Positions 43,827 to 52,606 of a DNA stretch of 64,000 nucleotides are shown one piece after another. How positions within the stretch are numbered: position 1 is the first letter of the stretch; each line of letters starts with the position of its first letter. Origin of the DNA: Albugo candida. Lineage: Eukaryota. A program made the translations under genes and the position numbers. The notes beneath the pieces were generated by a model. That model ran no database searches and had not been told where the DNA came from. It was given only the letters and a program-made list of their open reading frames with translations. The stretch covers positions 124,001 to 188,000 of the forward strand of contig JBDOQK010000056.1 of assembly GCA_040437565.1 (NCBI GenBank), in the 5' to 3' direction.

Positions 43827-45201
43827 ATGGCAGCAAATGCAGGAGACGAACAAGTCGAGCTTTTTAAAGTAAAAAAGCTAATTAAATCACTACAAGCAGC
43901 TCGAGGGTGCGCGAATTTTCTCTTTCTCTCACTAGCATCTTTTTTTTTCTTACTACATGTTCACTATCAGAAATGGAACGAGTATGATCTCTCTTATCAT
44001 TCCTCCAAAAGATCAAATTTCGCGTGTCTCTAAAATGCTTGCAGATGAAATGGGCACAGCATCTAACATCAAATCACGTGTCAATCGTCTTTCTGTCCTT
44101 GGAGCGATCACATCCACGCAGCAACGCCTTAAACTGTATTCAAAATGCCCTCCAAATGGACTCATTATCTACTGCGGTACTATCGTCACCGACGAAGGCA
44201 AAGAAAAACGCGTCAATATCGATTTCGAACCGTTTAAACCCATCAATACCTCTCTGTATATGTGTGATAATAAATTTCATACCGAAGCGTTAAATGAACT
44301 GCTGCAGGACAATGATCGGTTTGGATTCATTGTTATGGACGGAAATGGAGCTCTTTATGGTACCGTCGCTGGGAACGCACGAGAAATCCTGCATCGATTC
44401 TCTGTCGATTTACCGAAAAAACACGGACGAGGTGGTCAATCTGCTCTTCGTTTTGCCCGTTTACGTCTGGAAAAGCGTCATAATTATGTTCGAAAAGTAG
44501 CGGAAATGGCCACACAAATGTTTGTGTCCAACGACAAACCGAATATTTCAAATTTGGTACTTGCAGGATCGGCTGATTTCAAGAATGAGCTCAATACCAG
44601 TGATATGTTTGATAAACGGCTGCAGGAAATCGTTGTCAAAGTCGTGGATGTCTCTTACGGAGGAGAGAATGGATTCAATCAAGCGATTGAATTAGCGGCG
44701 GAAACGCTATCCAATGTAAAATTCGTCCAAGAAAAACGACTTATATGTAAATATATGGAGGAAATTGCTCAAGACTCGGGGAAATACTGTTTTGGTGTCG
44801 GTGATACGATGAGAGCGTTGGAACTTGGCGCAGTGGAAACGCTGATATTATGGGAAGATTTACCGCACACACGATTCACGTTGCGTAATGAGTCAACCGC
44901 AGCAGAGACACACAAGATCTTATCGCCATCAGAAGAAACAGTGGAGTCTCATTTCATCGATCCCGATAATAACGCAAAATTGGAAATTATGGAGCGGATC
45001 CCGTTAGTCGAATGGTTTGCGAATAATTACAAGCAATTCGGTACGGTGTTGGAATTTGTGACGTCCAAATCGCAAGAAGGCTCTCAATTCTGCAAAGGAT
45101 TTGGTGGAATTGGAGGTCTTCTACGATGGAAAGTCGATTTCATGGAAATGGAGTACGAATTCGACGAAGACGATGATTTTGATGAGGATGCATTTATGTA
45201 G
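43827..45201 (+). CDS. ETF1: Eukaryotic peptide chain release factor 1
   Basis: [56 protein letters not shown]. One intron at about 43907-43970. Confidence 0.98.
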
Positions 45202-45639
45202 TTCTAGATATCATGAGGCTCAATGTCAGCAAAACTAATCATTCGATGAGAGAATTTTCACGTTTGGCATCTCAACCTCATCACTCTCTCCCTTCCTGCA
45301 GATTCACAGGCTCCGTACTGAGTCTGAAGCTTTGTCGCGATTGAAATCTCCCAACGATTCGTACTGCCTCCCTTTTCAGTCGTCAATCCCAATACCAAGA
45401 AGGCTGGCGATGCGAGAGGATGTAGAGTAAGTCGTCTTCCGTAACCAATTCTCCCGGACTCGGGCTTGTATAGACATATCCCAAGGATGCATTTTCGNNN
45501 NNNNNNNNNNNNNNNNNNNNNNNNNNNNNNNNNNNNNNNNNNNNNNNNNNNNNNNNNNNNNNNNNNNNNNNNNNNNNNNNNNNNNNNNNNNNNNNNNTTG
45601 AAATCTCCCAACGATTCGTACTGCCTCCCTTTTCAGTCG

Positions 45640-48600
45640 TCAATCCCAATACCAAGAAGGCTGGCGATGCGAGAGGATGTAGAGTAAGTCGTCTTCCGTA
45701 ACCAATTCTCCCGGACTCGGGCTTGTATAGACATATCCCAAGGATGCATTTTCGCCATCCTTCAGGTACCGAAAAAGCCCCAAAACGAGCATTCCTTCCG
45801 ACAGCAAAAGCCCGTGAAACATCTCAGCAAAACATCGACCCACGAGATGTTTCGGGGCTCTGGTAGCGTACAACGAGCTCCGTTGAAGCATTTCGTCGGC
45901 CGTATCACTCAAATCTTCCGATGACTTGTCTTCCAAAACGAAGCCATCCTATCGAACACTGTCAGCGCCCCACAGACTTTGACTGCAGCCAACGTACGCT
46001 CTTCCATGCAGCCGAAATAAATTCGTGCAGAATCCTCTTAATCATCGGATTGAAAAACTGATTGATCATAAGGTTATCGCAAAATGATAAGCTGCATGTC
46101 AATCCTGAGGCAAATGCCGGGGAAACCGAGAAATCCGATGCTGTAAGGGCTAAAGTCTTTTTCTCAGAAGGGAATCCTCGCCTGGGCTCTTGAAGCAGCG
46201 ATTGTGCGATGTAATGGACATTGGATCGATTCGTGAGCTCAGTGATGATACTCCCGGCCTTGTGGTGCCCCACCATTGACAACACTGTCCTGTAGAGCGC
46301 TAGACAAGGCTAAAGACAATGTGAGCAACCGATCATGAGATGAGAAGCAAGTCTACCGCATCGGCTAGCAACTCGGTCTCGCAGGACTCAGAAAAAGCTT
46401 CACGCTGAGTCGACATGAGNNNNNNNNNNNNNNNNNNNNNNNNNNNNNNNNNNNNNNNNNNNNNNNNNNNNNNNNNNNNNNNNNNNNNNNNNNNNNNNNN
46501 NNNNNNNNNNNNNNNNNNNATACTTCCGGCCTTGTGGTGCCCCACCATTGACAACACTGTCCTGTAGAGCGCTAGACAAGGCTAAGGACAATGTGAGCAA
46601 TCGATCATGAGATGAGAAGCAATTGTACCGCATCGGCTAGCAACTCGGTCTCGCAGGACTCAGAAAAAGCTTCACGCTGAGTCGACATGAGCACAATTCG
46701 AAAAGACTTTTGAACTCCACCGAGCTGTAAGCTTGAGATATGATATGGGTTCCTGTGAAGGAAATACACGTCTGGAAAGTGAGCAAACAGAGCATACTGC
46801 TCCTCGTTTGGGATTGTTGCAGCTATAAACACAATGGGTCGATGAGGATGCAGCACATCCACACGCAAAGGACCGATAAAGTAAGGCATGTGCTCGGGGA
46901 ATGTATCCATTGACACGACACAAACTGTGATAGGATCCAATTGGAACTGTAATGTGCTCACGTCGTCGATAAGAACGTCATGGAGCCTGCGAGGACCTGT
47001 GTCACCTGCTTTACCAACAATGGAAGGACGATGAAGCAGTCGAGGAAGACAATTCGGGACTTGAGATTGACCCAAGAGGGAGTTTGATAGAGGTGGTCTC
47101 CAGCTTCCCTTCGTCATAGACTCGACTGCATCCGCTTGACGCCGGTCTTTGGCGATCGCAATTGCTGATTCGTAACCCACGCACGTATACGAGAAGCCTG
47201 GATTCAAAAGAATGTTGCTCTGAGGAGCTCCAGCCGGGACAATTGCGAATACGATAACACCACATTTCTCGAAGATAAGACCCGATACCTGAGCAAATGC
47301 CATTCCTCCAACGACAGCCTCGCTTGGAAGCTTGACACAATAGAGCTCGTGGCTGGCTCCATGCAAATACCGTGAGACCCAATGCGATGTTTCTGCATCC
47401 AAATAAGAGTTAGACGCATTCACGTTCGATGAGCACGTGAGGTTGTAGATCAGAGTCGAAAAGCCCGGACAGACACAATTTTGTGCCAGTAGTGAAAGCA
47501 CCAGCTCCGGATAGAACAAAGCGTTTTCTACGTGTAGATCTTCCATCAAGCGAGCATTACACGATCGATGCATTTGCACGTATAACGGGGCGCAAGGCCC
47601 AAAACGCTTGGCCGCCAAAACTCGCATAAGCGTTCGATAATCGCATTCTTGCTCGTCTGTTTGCTTATTTGCATGAGATAGAATGAAGATTGCAGAAGCT
47701 GAGCAGCAAGCGGATCGTTCTGCATCTTGCTGATCCAAAATGCTTCCCTGGATAAAGCTTGTTCGCTTCGAGTAGAATGGATCCATTAAGAGAGCCTGCA
47801 ATGAGCTGGAAGGTTCTTCTTCCGATAGCACCACTACGTTGACATCCACAACATCATGATCATCGTGAAAGACCTCGTGGAAGAAGCAGTCGATGCGTAA
47901 GGTGCTCAGGTCTCCACAGAGAACCACATGCCGAACACGGCTAGAAGGCTTATACTTTGCTGCTTGGTACACTGAGAAAGCACTTCGGAGATCCATCACG
48001 TGAGCGAGCTGGTAGGGTACAATCACTATGAGTACGACCACGAGGATGCCGACAAAGAGCTTTGCGAGCGTATTGTCTGCCGGGGGAACTTGAATGGTCA
48101 CAAACATGAGTATGGAGTTGAAAAAGGAATTGAAAAACGTCCAATTATGATTCCATTTGATCCTTTCATCGAGCGTTTCAGCAATCTGGAGGATCCCTGC
48201 GGCACATGCGATGATGAAAATCAGCTGCAAGTAGCATAGAGCGGCAAATTGCTGCACTGGAGCCATATACTCGTGACAACGTGCTAAAACGGCTTTGATA
48301 GATTGATAGCAATGAAGGAAACGGACAGGGTACAAAAAACGCCATGGAGAAGCTCCAAGCCAAAGCGTACTACACAAGATACCTAGTTAGGGATTAATGA
48401 GATCGATGACCTTGATTGATAGCGTACGCACTGTGAGGAGACCAGAAATGATGCTGGAAGTACCGGAAGGGTGATACAAAGAACTTCCAAAGTGGAGACT
48501 GATAGAATCGAGTCAAGACGATGATCAGAGAGATATACGTCACGGAAGAAGAAAGCTATGAAAAAGCATGCCGCTAAGATTATTTCCAGGCTCCATTGCA

Positions 48601-48989
48601 AAGGTGGAAGCTATTAGAAAGTATCAGAGTCTCGTAACATGCGGCTCCTACTACTTACAGAGCTCAGCGGGGGCTGATACGTTCTCAGAATGTATGAACA
48701 AGAGAATAAAAAAGAGGAGATCGCAACCACGACGTCGTAAAAAATCCCAAATGTGCTGTGGTCCAAATACCTTGACAGAATCACAATCAAACATTTTTGG
48801 CCTGGAAAGCCTCAAGTAAGAAAACCTGCTTATTCGATCTCGGAGGCGTTTTCCGCGCAAAAAATTAAATGAGGTAGAGGATACGACACCTTTGTAGACT
48901 TATTGAGTGAAATTCAAAGTACAGGAGCAGCTTGACGCACCATGGGCGCTTCCAAGGCTTCTGTGCGGTGGAACGGATTCTTTCATCAT
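45640..48989 (-). CDS. BK/Slo-family (RCK-containing) ion channel-like protein with non-canonical pore (multi-exon)
   Basis: S4-S6-like segments, RHVVLCGD, FFHEVFHDDH, FIQGSILD, LLAQNCVCPGFSTLIYNL, RYLHGASHELY, ILLNPG, IITEL, PAFASG, LVLGLFR, YVYTSP. Confidence 0.88.
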
Positions 48990-49210
48990 AGTGCGATGAA
49001 ACGGAGACGTCTTGCACAGGAAGCGTGACAAATATGTTGAGTGTGTCACTTATATAAGAAATGTACCATTGGAATCGTTCCGTAATGCTTTGTGTGCTCC
49101 GTGCATAGCTGCGTATTGTTCGAAGCGTTGGGTGCGGAATGCATCATGACGTTTCAAGATCCGTCCAGGTCAAGAAGCGAATCACTTATATATTAATGTG
49201 TACACCTTAA

Positions 49211-51904
49211 CTAGCTGTTTTGTTTATCTACCCATGTCTCACAACTGAGCTTTTTTACTTGCACTACGTCTGCGGAAGCCACGATCGGAGCGTGTATCTG
49301 TAAACTGGGAAGTGTCCCACATATCAAGAGCATGGGATCCATGCATTTGTCTGCGTAGTAATCTCCATATTCCTGTGGATGCATCCCACTGTCTTCATCT
49401 TCCGCTTCTCCTTGTGAATTGATAGAATTCCTTCGTGTACTTGAGTTATTCGCATAAGATGTGGCTCCATTTTTGTAATAAAGCAGCTCTTCACGGAGCA
49501 ATCGGTATTTTTCCTGAGACTTTATAATTTGCGATCGAAAAAGCGTTTGATACTGCTGAAGTGAGCTTTGAAGACACGCCATGTGATTNNNNNNNNNNNN
49601 NNNNNNNNNNNNNNNNNNNNNNNNNNNNNNNNNNNNNNNNNNNNNNNNNNNNNNNNNNNNNNNNNNNNNNNNNNNNNNNNNNNNNNNNTCATCTTCCGCT
49701 TCTCCTTGTGAATTGATAGAATTCCTTCGTGTACTTGAGTTATTCGCATAAGATGTGGCTCCATTTTTGTAATAAAGCAGCTCTTCACGGAGCAATCGGT
49801 ATTTTTCCTGAGACTTTATAATTTGCGATCGAAAAAGCGTTTGATACTGCTGAAGTGAGCTTTGAAGACACGCCATGTGATTCCCTTGTTCTGCCAGTCG
49901 CGTCTCATTGGTGTGTACAGCAACCTCTGCTTGGTTTCGCAAGTTTTGAAGAAGCACTTCTAGCTCTTCCACATGCTTTCTCAACTTCAAATTCTCTTCT
50001 GATAAATAAGACCCTTGCTCGTGACTTTCACTCTCAAGGAATGAACGTGAGAGACTCTGCAGTTTGAGTTTGAGCTCGCAAATCTGAATTCCTCTTTCTT
50101 GAGATTGTATTTGGTGTACACAAACCTTTCCATTCTCGTCGATATCATGGTCAGGATTGTAATTACTTGATTGGATTCCAGGACATCGGGAGAAAGCTTC
50201 AGTGATCAGCAATGAATCAGTTGATGTGGTGATACATTTGATATCGATAATATTGTGCTCTCCAGTCGATAGCACGGTCCTCCAATCAGCCATTTGAAGC
50301 AGCTTTCGCAAACTGAGCGTTGGATAAAGAAGAGCTGGAACGGTGGAGTGTGTATTCACCGATAATAAGGTCACTGTGATCTCCTCCAAGCTCTTCTGCA
50401 AGTCATTCAGTTCTTGGTCTTTGACATTTTTCTCAGCCTGAATCGATTCTTTATCTCGTTCGATTTCAGCATTCCATTCTGTGAGATGCTCACATTTTCG
50501 CTCATACTCTTCCATTCTTCGAAGTAATTGCGTGTGAGACATTTTTAGAGAGCCGTCAAGCTGCTCATTTGAATTCCATTGCAGTTCATTAGATCCCTCA
50601 GGCTTTATTGCATCACGTTTCTCGTTTTCACGACCCGTATCGAGAGAGTCGGCTCTGGTTTCCAAATCATGCTTGAGAGCTTGTATCTCTCGTTTTCCAG
50701 CCGATACAGCTTCCATTGCTTGCAGGTATAGCTCTTTGAGCTTTTGTTTCGGCAAATCATCGTCCTCCAATGGTGAAGAAACCAGCATATTTTTCAGCTC
50801 TTTTGCACGTAATCCAAATCGAAGAGTCGACATGGTTTCTGACAGATTATATGTGCTGCAGGATGCGGTCAGTATCAGAGCTATTTTCGCTTTTCCACTC
50901 AGAGAATCTTGCAAAATGCGAGTGAGTTTACTGTCCCGGTACGGAACGTGTTTCTTCCCTTCAGCCAGAGCTTTGATCACATTACTTAACGCTGAAAGCG
51001 ATTTGTTGATGGAAATTGCTTCCTGGAGAGCCTTACCACTGACATTCGATTTATTCACAAGCTCTGATCCAGCCAAGTCAACAATATACATTGTACAGCT
51101 CTTCAGCTTCATCCGTGACCCATCCACTAACGTTTGATAGCGCGCCATCGTTATTGTAAAGACGCTGTGACTTCGACTTGAATCCTTGTTCATCTTGGTC
51201 GATGTCACAGCTCTTTGCTGAGTCCCCGATCGAACGTATTCAATCATTGTGCCAGCGTCTGGAGCAACCAGCTCGGTCATATCACTGATGAAGACACCAC
51301 GTTGTGAGCATTCGCGTACGCGAAGAAGTCCTCCAGTGTTACGCGCATTCCCAGCCGAAACCGATGCTGAAGACCGACCACTCCTATCCGTACAATGCAA
51401 CAAATCACGAATTTGCTCCAAGTAAATCTCCACGAATGAAGCAGTAAATTCGAGACAAGTGGAATCGTCTTGATACGTCTCCTTCTCACGATACAAGTCT
51501 CGTATTAACCGCGGAATGATCCCGTCACTCTGATTCACAATCGATTTTGACTGCTTGGTGCAGGCATCCATGCAGCCTGAGATCGTGTGCGTCTTTCCGG
51601 AACCAGTCTGCCCGTACGCGAAAATGGTGCAGTTACCACCTTGGATGAAGTCATGTACCAAGTGTTTTGCGCTGTTCTCATACACTTGTTCTTGTGTGGC
51701 AGTAACGTCAAAGATACGATCAAAAGTGCAGCGTAAATCGTCGACTTCACAATGAGCGCTGCGGATATATACTCCGCGATCGTCAACTACTGTCGAACAG
51801 GAACTAGCACCGACTTCTTTCTCTAAGGCGTTCTGGGGCCGAAGTCGGCAGTACACTTGGATGTTGAAAGGAATTTCCTGCGAGTCGGAAGAGGAGTCTG
51901 GCAT
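49211..51904 (-). CDS. Kinesin motor protein (kinesin-1-like N-terminal motor with coiled coil)
   Basis: IQVYCRLRP, FAYGQTGSGKTHT, SFVEIYLE, SSRSH, VDLAGSE, HVPYRDSKLTRILQDSLSG. A ~65-aa duplication across the gap is artefactual. Confidence 0.95.
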   Translation of the reverse strand: MPDSSSDSQEIPFNIQVYCRLRPQNALEKEVGASSCSTVVDDRGVYIRSAHCEVDDLRCTFDRIFDVTATQEQVYENSAKHLVHDFIQGGNCTIFAYGQTGSGKTHTISGCMDACTKQSKSIVNQSDGIIPRLIRDLYREKETYQDDSTCLEFTASFVEIYLEQIRDLLHCTDRSGRSSASVSAGNARNTGGLLRVRECSQRGVFISDMTELVAPDAGTMIEYVRSGTQQRAVTSTKMNKDSSRSHSVFTITMARYQTLVDGSRMKLKSCTMYIVDLAGSELVNKSNVSGKALQEAISINKSLSALSNVIKALAEGKKHVPYRDSKLTRILQDSLSGKAKIALILTASCSTYNLSETMSTLRFGLRAKELKNMLVSSPLEDDDLPKQKLKELYLQAMEAVSAGKREIQALKHDLETRADSLDTGRENEKRDAIKPEGSNELQWNSNEQLDGSLKMSHTQLLRRMEEYERKCEHLTEWNAEIERDKESIQAEKNVKDQELNDLQKSLEEITVTLLSVNTHSTVPALLYPTLSLRKLLQMADWRTVLSTGEHNIIDIKCITTSTDSLLITEAFSRCPGIQSSNYNPDHDIDENGKVCVHQIQSQERGIQICELKLKLQSLSRSFLESESHEQGSYLSEENLKLRKHVEELEVLLQNLRNQAEVAVHTNETRLAEQGNHMACLQSSLQQYQTLFRSQIIKSQEKYRLLREELLYYKNGATSYANNSSTRRNSINSQGEAEDXXXXXXXXXXXXXXXXXXXXXXXXXXXXXXXXXXNHMACLQSSLQQYQTLFRSQIIKSQEKYRLLREELLYYKNGATSYANNSSTRRNSINSQGEAEDEDSGMHPQEYGDYYADKCMDPMLLICGTLPSLQIHAPIVASADVVQVKKLSCETWVDKQNS

Positions 51905-52108
51905 CAAGAAGATGAGATAATAGCTTCACGAGAAGAAACAGAATTCTTAGTTCGTAGGATGCATTTAGATGTGTAAATATAGCGTAGTAGCTGCTTTTCT
52001 AATCGAATCAGTTCAGAAAGAATGATTGTAGCATTCTTCTAGGAATGCGATGCAGGGCCGAGACGTTCTGATTGGTGGAATTCGTGCTAGAACTGTTTGT
52101 TTGGCGGA

Positions 52109-52606
52109 ATGCGAGTTTTTGTTACTGTGGGCACGACTAAGTTTGACGCGTTGATCGAAGCTTTGGATCAGAGAGAATGTTTACGGGCTTTGTATGAACA
52201 TGGATATCGAGAAATCACAATGCAGATTGGTCACGGAATGTATGTACCTCGTGGAATACTGGAAGACAGACCAGATTTGAAATTATCCTATTATCGGCAT
52301 GATCCACATTATAAAAAAGATGTCGTGAAGGCTGATTTAGTGATAAGTCATGCCGGTGCTGGATCGTGTATGGATACGCTCGCCGAAAAGAAAAAACTCA
52401 TCGTCGTTGTTAATACAGCTCTTATGAACAATCATCAGGCAGAATTAGCCGACGCTATGGATGAAAGGAGGTACTGTATCAAAACTACTTGCAAAGATTT
52501 ACCGGATACGCTCAAGCAAGGGCGCTGGAAAGATGATTTAGAGCCGTATCCCTCGCCGAATTTGAACGCATTTCCAGCATTAGTTGATGCACTGATGGGC
52601 GTATAG
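52109..52606 (+). CDS. ALG13: UDP-GlcNAc transferase subunit ALG13
   Basis: VFVTVGTTKFDALI, ADLVISHAGAGS, LIVVVNTALMNNHQAELA. Confidence 0.95.
   Translation: MRVFVTVGTTKFDALIEALDQRECLRALYEHGYREITMQIGHGMYVPRGILEDRPDLKLSYYRHDPHYKKDVVKADLVISHAGAGSCMDTLAEKKKLIVVVNTALMNNHQAELADAMDERRYCIKTTCKDLPDTLKQGRWKDDLEPYPSPNLNAFPALVDALMGV

Follow-up and report, generated by a model that had tools for sequence, protein, structure and literature searches.

A K+ filter requires two glycines and an extended five-residue strand. Among the Slo channels, the roles of the residues that form the RCK1 Ca2+ site, the Ca2+ bowl and the Mg2+ site of Slo1 (BK, KCNMA1) have been tabulated (Table 1 of PMC4319557), and Slo2.2 (KCNT1) is a Na+-activated K+ channel with the signature TVGYGD. 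Other pores are built differently. Cyclic-nucleotide-gated (CNG) channels have the filter TIGETPPP, with a Glu that governs Ca2+ block (PMC4555469), and the proline-rich NaKTs is non-selective (PMC5052707). The plant nuclear channels CASTOR/POLLUX/DMI1 combine an RCK ring with a pore that has no TVGYG and an essential filter Asp; in CASTOR the filter is ADS(A)GNHA, gating is by Ca2+, selectivity for Ca2+ is high, and the mutation D265N abolishes the current (PMC6697748). Here we describe a gene of Albugo candida for a Slo-like channel in which the K+ filter is replaced. The gene lies on the minus strand of a 64,000-nucleotide stretch (assembly GCA_040437565.1, contig JBDOQK010000056.1, positions 124,001 to 188,000 of the forward strand; hereafter, the window). 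The original prediction, made from the letters of the window, was that TIQVPP takes the place of TVGYGD in a BK/Slo-like protein.

The pore helix, the pore loop and the start of S6 read WTFFNSFFNSILMFVTIQVPPADNTLAKLFVG (minus strand, 48048-48143, 32 residues), within the interval 48040-48150 that had been singled out, and belong to an open frame of 593 codons (minus strand, 46605-48386) that reads ...WNHNWTFFNSFFNSILMFVTIQVPPADNTLAKLFVGILVVVLIVIVPYQ.... When the protein was compared with all PDB chains using phmmer, TIQVPP was aligned under TVGYGD of Slo2.2 ('mfvtiqvppadntl..aklf' beneath 'TFSTVGYGDVTPKIwpSQLL') and the loop to S6 was two residues shorter, which bears out the predicted absence of the filter. 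Both GYG glycines are absent, a pair of prolines comes next and the loop is shortened; the Thr-Ile that ends the pore helix is kept in the Albugo lineage, as it is in NaK and CNG channels. No [TS][VIL]G[YFL]G string was found anywhere in the channel protein or in the 73 proteins collected as its oomycete family. Since the absence of GYG is a direct reading of the letters, no question of chance arises.

The remainder of the protein is that of a Slo channel, as had been proposed. Pfam profiles matched the large exon with Slo-like_RCK (6.9e-35, two stretches) and BK_channel_a (2.3e-21), and a weak Slowpoke_C match lies in the last exon; the tandem RCK1-RCK2 arrangement was recovered as two stretches of Slo-like_RCK (4.7e-38) together with BK_channel_a (3.4e-23). 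All 30 phmmer matches among the PDB chains at E ≤ 0.01 are Slo1, Slo2 or Slo3, the best being human Slo2.2 (8hir, 5.6e-30) and human BK (8v60, 5.8e-29), and only the alignment to Slo2.2, which starts at query residue 13, takes in S4 and S5. The profiles Ion_trans and Ion_trans_2 scored 14.9 and 15.9 bits, under the Pfam cut-offs because the pore domain is divergent (70.4 and 46.2 bits in the GYG-bearing relative P0047). An AlphaFold2 model was built as a monomer on the 85%-identical orthologue of Albugo laibachii (P0003) with a 37-sequence family alignment, and has moderate confidence (mean predicted local distance difference test, pLDDT, 67). It shows S1-S6 and a pore helix, then two Rossmann-like lobes, with helices at residues 78-101 (S1), 112-135 (S2), 140-165 (S3), 177-202 (S4) and 206-234 (S5), a pore helix at 247-260, an 8-residue loop at 261-268 (IQVPPADN) and S6 at 269-297. 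The six transmembrane helices and the S5-pore helix-S6 order of Slo channels are therefore present in the orthologue model, for which Foldseek retrieved full-length human, Aplysia and Drosophila Slo1 and Slo2.2 from the PDB (E 1e-37 to 1e-33, template modelling score ~0.52, 19-21% identity; ~1e-37 for Slo1) and the isolated BK gating ring 3u6n (TMt 0.78). By descent, the protein belongs to the Slo (BK/Slo2) family, and it is expressed and most likely functional; it carries no TVGYG signature and is thus not filed as a potassium channel.

Transcript data were used to follow the pore exon. Logan contigs of four public runs were compared with positions 46605-49160, two of the runs (X1 and X2) belonging to one study and having the recorded kind 'RNA?'. 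X1 and X2 gave one contig each (4049 and 4142 nt), and both skip exactly 48370-48431 and 48611-48658, gaps that read CT..AC on the plus strand and GT..AG on the minus strand. Past 46629 both contigs continue into letters that, as reverse complement, translate to PCLALYRTVL, the start of exon 7. As they skip introns and join exon 7, they are spliced transcripts, and the channel gene is expressed and spliced according to the transcript contigs of this study. Both span 46629-48369 without interruption and leave no hidden exon that could supply GYG in these transcripts; an alternative exon concealing the motif was rejected, in agreement with the earlier statement that no intron could hide it. Seven letters differ between strains in exon 6, of which five are synonymous, two are conservative changes in the RCK linker and none falls in the pore. 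A contig of 47,678 nt from X4 is colinear with the window, introns included, and the pore letters are identical in independent contigs of all four runs.

The pore is also filterless throughout the oomycete family. Of its 73 proteins, 69 cover the pore (the other four are fragments or broken models), and a GYG-like motif occurs in 0 of the 69; conservation of the filterless pore as a clade, which the original prediction had put forward as a check, was thus found. Among the commonest motifs, TIQTPPADN occurs in 17 proteins, TIQSPPADN in 16, TIDKPPSEN in 8, AMNYPTADN in 7, TIDKPPSDN in 6 and YVDYPPAEN in 2, with three singletons of the form TIG(T/S/A)PPAD(N/R) (P0050, P0053 and P0213). TIQVPPADN itself is found in three: the window protein, a further protein 98% identical to it, and its closest named relative, A. 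laibachii P0003 (955 amino acids, 85% identity over the large exon). Phytophthora and its allies have at least two paralogues, of the TIDKPPSEN and TIQSPPADN types, and the Saprolegniales have two, of the AMNYPTADN and YVDYPPAEN types; since paralogues keep a filterless motif, this state survived duplications. Three family models (P0211, P0212 and P0205) are fused to unrelated domains (a sulfhydryl oxidase, a tRNA methyltransferase, a long N-terminal extension) and probably result from the merging of separate gene models in the annotations they come from.

In the 37-sequence alignment, the majority fraction is highest in the pore helix (0.87), followed by S5 (0.74), the loop (0.72) and S6 (0.67), with 0.67 overall. 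The first Pro (P264) is invariant, N268 stands at 0.95 and K272, a Lys four residues on, at 0.97, and P-x-[A/S]-[D/E]-N at the pore mouth is nearly invariant in the family. Within the pore region, variation is greatest at positions 262-263, the two that stand in for G-Y (0.43 and 0.32). Such a profile belongs to a pore that is under selection and has had its mouth re-specified, and not to a decaying one. A pseudogene in decay, or an artefact of assembly or annotation behind the odd pore, might be argued from the gaps of 100 N with duplicated flanks in the 3' part of the gene. The gaps, however, lie outside the pore exon, the 955-residue frame is open and colinear with the A. laibachii protein, the same pore letters recur in the contigs of four runs with a spliced transcript, and every one of the 69 pore-covering family members is filterless. 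The pseudogene was rejected on conservation and expression, and this explanation as a whole is effectively refuted.

The same profile bears on a second alternative, a non-conducting RCK-based sensor or regulatory subunit that would keep the Slo scaffold, pass no ions and signal by conformation or co-assembly. The canonical filter is wholly replaced, positions 262-263 are radically different between orders and the Ion_trans and Ion_trans_2 scores are below the cut-offs, all of which would suit such a protein. It is nevertheless hard to explain in a protein that needs no pore why the pore helix should be the best conserved segment, with S5 above and S6 at the overall value, and the near-invariant pore mouth also speaks against it. 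A canonical partner with which it might co-assemble was not seen either, as there was no GYG pore among the named oomycete homologues retrieved in a limited search. We regard a sensor or subunit of this kind as unlikely.

To compare the gating residues with those of BK, the window protein was aligned with HMMER to full-length BK chains whose numbering in the alignments reproduces K361, D362, H365, D367, D369 and E374. The RCK1 segment FHEVFHDDHDVVDVN of the window protein lies beneath FLKDFLHKDRDDVNVE of BK, placing His at H365, Asp at D367 and Asp at D369, and RYLHGASHELY lies beneath YYLEGVSNEMY, placing Ser at S533 and Glu at E535. Each of these five positions is conserved in at least 90% of the 37 family members, and the G, E and Y of GASHELY and the H and D of HDDHD are invariant. 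At the level of residues, the RCK1 high-affinity Ca2+ site of BK (D367 and E535, with the R514 backbone) thus appears to be retained. Slo2.2 differs from both BK and the oomycete protein in having a His in place of the D367 aspartate. Unlike BK, the window protein has no S0, as no hydrophobic segment was found in its 77-residue N-terminus when read directly, and only two arginines are found in its S4, for which the best alignment is to that of Slo2.2. These two features of S4 suggest that voltage dependence is probably weak.

Relatives outside the oomycetes were collected in an exhaustive phmmer search over 1.84 billion representatives, which returned 2007 proteins at E ≤ 0.001 and 115 at E ≤ 1e-30. 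Identity to the window protein is at least 45% in the oomycete clade and then falls sharply to 36% or less. In the pore alignment of the listed representatives P0049-P0194, many read T(V/I)G(Y/F)G and several have no match in the pore region. A sizeable second group without GYG reads ..FFDVFYTIAVSSTSGLSTQI(I/V)PDN.FSR.. and comes from zoosporic fungi, both chytrid and blastocladian (Homolaphlyctis, Batrachochytrium, Spizellomyces, Globomyces, Gaertneriomyces, Borealophlyctis, Gorgonomyces and Allomyces). These fungal proteins have the same Pfam domains as the window protein and share with it an acidic-Asn motif before S6 (..I(I/V)PDN.. in fungi, ..PPADN.. in oomycetes). They are, however, only 26-32% identical to it, and unlike it have a longer, serine-rich pore loop (SSTSGLSTQIIPDN); their H365 position is occupied by Cys or Ser and their D369 position by Gly.

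A phylogeny was built from 69 rows chosen by hand from about 220 proteins: 12 of the oomycete family including the window protein, 25 others without GYG and 32 of the GYG type, counting one TVGYED; the tree covers these representatives. In a quick tree of all columns, one branch parts the non-GYG from the GYG rows with a support of 93 in the Shimodaira-Hasegawa-like approximate likelihood ratio test (SH-aLRT), and the same split was obtained without the 34 pore columns (SH-aLRT 89). IQ-TREE without the pore columns likewise separated the 37 non-GYG from the 32 GYG-type rows on a single branch (ultrafast bootstrap, UFBoot, 96; SH-aLRT 90), and 99% of 200 bootstrap trees had one state change, in a bootstrap that had not fully settled (correlation 0.981). 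The zoosporic-fungal proteins lie with the oomycete family on the non-GYG side of this branch. The oomycete clade has a support of 100/100 in IQ-TREE; its sister is P0057. The simplest reading of this unrooted tree of hand-chosen sequences would be a single loss of GYG. Three proteins with half-way pores (P0056, TVGYVDD; P0072, TVGYLSDIVPD; P0185, TISYENSLVPDD) branch on the non-GYG side and may record steps of the filter loss.

The clade motif TI(Q/G/D)xPP[A/S][D/E]N resembles the filter of CNG channels, and its Ala-Asp..Asn resembles that of CASTOR, which together suggest a cation pore that is not K+-selective. In the reading we favour, with a probability of roughly 0.55, the protein would form a tetrameric cation channel with probable gating by Ca2+ and a pore either non-selective or permeable to Ca2+, and the 'calcium-activated potassium channels' of this clade are, by analogy, probably not K+-selective. 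Tetramer assembly is presumed from homology to Slo channels. The pore loop would be unable to form a four-site K+ filter and might instead give a filter that is short and wide, its outer mouth ringed by acidic side chains, with the conserved Asp/Glu as the likely selectivity or Ca2+-binding element. Such a pore would conduct cations without K+ selectivity, as a Na+/K+ non-selective channel and/or a Ca2+-permeable one. Gating would most likely be exerted by the RCK ring through the acidic RCK1 site (the D367 and E535 equivalents) in response to cytosolic Ca2+ or another divalent ion, and the channel may have a role in Ca2+ or electrical signalling of spores or hyphae. A pore that is non-selective or Ca2+-permeable would, on opening, let Ca2+ in or depolarise the cell, where a K+ channel hyperpolarises it.

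Judged by analogy, CASTOR/POLLUX/DMI1 would be the best functional precedent, as a pore without TVGYG and with an essential Asp on an RCK ring. They are a separate family, with four predicted transmembrane segments (PMC6697748) against the six seen here, and the CASTOR filter ADS(A)GNHA differs from the oomycete TIQxPPADN. The Castor_Poll_mid profile had no match in P0003 and reached just 12.4 bits (cut-off 26.7) in one of the five proteins scanned, a Phytophthora member. The likeness to CNG channels lies in the pore, where TIGETPPP (PMC4555469) compares with TIQ(T/V/S)PPAD and TIG(T/S/A)PPAD of the clade, both shorter than in K+ channels and with prolines after. The window protein differs from CNG channels in carrying an RCK ring in place of a cyclic-nucleotide-binding domain, which was absent from the Pfam matches at E ≤ 1, and the resemblance of the pores is most likely convergent. 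Membership of either the CASTOR/POLLUX/DMI1 or the CNG family was rejected by Pfam.

Several points weigh against a Ca2+-gated, non-K+-selective channel. Selectivity is here read from sequence analogy, and the pore loop of the orthologue model has a pLDDT of about 56-62, so the model gives no pore geometry and was not used to argue one. Thr-Ile of the signature is not found family-wide, and as the Saprolegniales have lost it (AMNYPTADN and YVDYPPAEN), a two-site filter like that of NaK or CNG channels cannot be general. The D367 equivalent is present in 24 and the E535 equivalent in 28 of the 32 GYG-type members; being common across the wider superfamily, they point to retention of an ancestral site and not specifically to Ca2+ gating. 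The Ca2+ bowl of BK (D889, D892, D895 and D897) has no counterpart here, nor has it one in Slo2.2: exon 7 holds no Asp run (...NVHYIAQSLLQEPRRGFPSEKK...), and the region between ...TELTNRSNVHYI and SPAFASG aligns to Slo3 alone (4hpf, E 0.011). The Mg2+-site residue E374 of BK is Asn in the window protein and N, H or R across the clade; of the Mg2+-site residues E374, E399, D99 and N172, the comparison covers E374. Of the claim that the RCK gating ring is well preserved, the RCK1 Ca2+-site residues therefore stand, and the Ca2+ bowl and the Mg2+ site do not.

A further point on the same side is that KtrAB selects K+ with a non-canonical filter (PMC6888753), and the channel might still be K+-selective through an unconventional filter of its own, in which case the name 'calcium-activated potassium channel' would be right in substance. 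Thr-Ile is retained in Albugo, Pythium and Phytophthora, and Phytophthora homologues have been treated as BK on the basis of BLASTP (PMC7409359). Against this, both glycines are missing, two prolines have come in and the loop is shorter, the Saprolegniales lack Thr-Ile, and the tested channels with similar changes (CNG, NaKTs and CASTOR) are non-selective or Ca2+-selective. We therefore hold K+ selectivity to be quite improbable, and a cation pore without it remains the preferred reading.

A bolder and rather doubtful extension is that the oomycetes and zoosporic fungi have in common an ancient Slo-derived clade with one loss of the K+ filter, whose channels would be Ca2+-activated and Ca2+-permeable and could serve in zoospores and hyphae as amplifiers of Ca2+-induced Ca2+ entry. 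Were this true, the clade would be a counterpart of CASTOR and CNG channels on a BK scaffold, and the annotations as 'BK' or 'calcium-activated potassium channel', along with inferences on zoospore K+ sensing in these lineages, would be wrong. An old, conserved Slo branch that keeps a voltage-sensor-like domain and an RCK ring with the K+ filter replaced would be a natural experiment on the selectivity of tetrameric pores, and a second independent non-K+ pore driven by an RCK ring, after plant CASTOR/DMI1. Among the named homologues, the clade occurs in chytrids and in oomycete pathogens of plants and animals, making it a candidate selective target.

The homologues of oomycetes and fungi are named 'calcium-activated potassium channel subunit alpha-1' or 'BK' in their sources, and at least one study, on the behaviour of Phytophthora zoospores, reasons from the BK label given by BLASTP (PMC7409359). 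A survey of eukaryotic Kv and CNBD (cyclic-nucleotide-binding domain) channels explicitly excluded BK (PMC7576140), and a review of oomycete Ca2+ signalling makes no mention of RCK or Slo channels (PMC4820453). No published account of non-GYG Slo-like channels in oomycetes or chytrids was found, in a search that covered subscription journals thinly, and none of the zoosporic-fungal group in the literature searched. The suggestion of an undescribed oomycete subclass holds to the extent that no description was found; it does not hold as a class confined to oomycetes, given the related group in zoosporic fungi. New here is this second non-GYG Slo group in chytrid and blastocladian fungi.

The gene model and the positions of the features discussed above are given in Table 1. 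Among the enumerated GT..AG intron models, a single one is colinear with the A. laibachii orthologue and gives the open frame.

Table 1 Exons, motifs and other features of the Slo-like channel gene, in positions of the window.
Feature	Positions	Strand	Basis and remarks
Whole Slo-like channel gene	45640..49147	minus	8 coding exons, 955 amino acids; tblastn with A. laibachii P0003 and splice-site enumeration
Exon 1	49067..49147	minus	ATG at 49147; boundary inferred from GT..AG and orthologue, beyond the RNA contigs
Exon 2	48941..49010	minus	inferred boundary
Exon 3	48826..48889	minus	inferred boundary
Exon 4 (S1)	48659..48770	minus	3' end 48659 from spliced contigs; 5' end inferred
Exon 5 (S2-S3)	48432..48610	minus	both ends from spliced contigs of X1 and X2
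Exon 6 (S4, S5, pore helix, filterless loop, S6, RCK1, start of RCK2)	46629..48369	minus	unbroken in transcript contigs; Pfam
TIQVPPADN, in place of TVGYGD and the next residues	48072..48098	minus	HMMER alignment to Slo2.2
HDDHD, aligned to BK H365-K-D367-R-D369 (RCK1 Ca2+ site)	47856..47870	minus	HMMER alignment
GASHELY in RCK1, aligned to BK G531-V-S533-N-E535-M-Y	47343..47363	minus	HMMER alignment
Pseudo-intron, nominally 319 bases	46310..46628	minus	not genuine; likely true intron 47 bases, 46582-46628
Exon 7 (RCK2; region of the Ca2+ bowl of BK)	45998..46309	minus	tblastn, splice enumeration
Exon 8 with stop codon (C-terminal lobe of RCK2)	45640..45948	minus	weak Slowpoke_C match, 22.9 bits

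Exon 1 encodes part of the cytoplasmic N-terminus, with no hydrophobic S0-like stretch, and exon 6 is 1741 bases long. The interval 46310-46628 contains a partial first copy of exon 7 (46522-46581), 100 N (46420-46519) and, for a second time, the end of exon 6 and the intron after it; the A. laibachii orthologue has a single copy where the window repeats the exon 6/7 junction, and the duplication is likely an assembly artefact. Three runs of exactly 100 N occur in the window (45498-45597, 46420-46519 and 49589-49688), each bordered by near-identical duplicates, namely of the end of the last channel exon, of the exon 6/7 junction and of a piece of a kinesin gene. The duplicate copies differ at one residue, Q versus D (46605 versus 46333). 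The flanks of these gaps resemble contig ends or haplotypes that overlap but were left unmerged, and not true tandem duplications.

Directly downstream of the channel gene and convergent with it is a single open frame (43936-45201, plus strand) with the NIKS and GGQ motifs of the eukaryotic release factor eRF1, which it may encode; its standard NIKS suggests the standard genetic code. Directly upstream and on the same strand as the channel gene is a long open frame (49211-51925, minus strand), broken by one N gap, that starts with a kinesin motor (GQTGSGKT, SSRSH and DLAGSE) and continues into coiled-coil-like sequence. A short open frame on the plus strand (52091-52606) begins MRVFVTVGTTKFDALIEAL... 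and may encode a small protein of the glycosyltransferase-28 C-terminal or ALG13 type, which it resembles.

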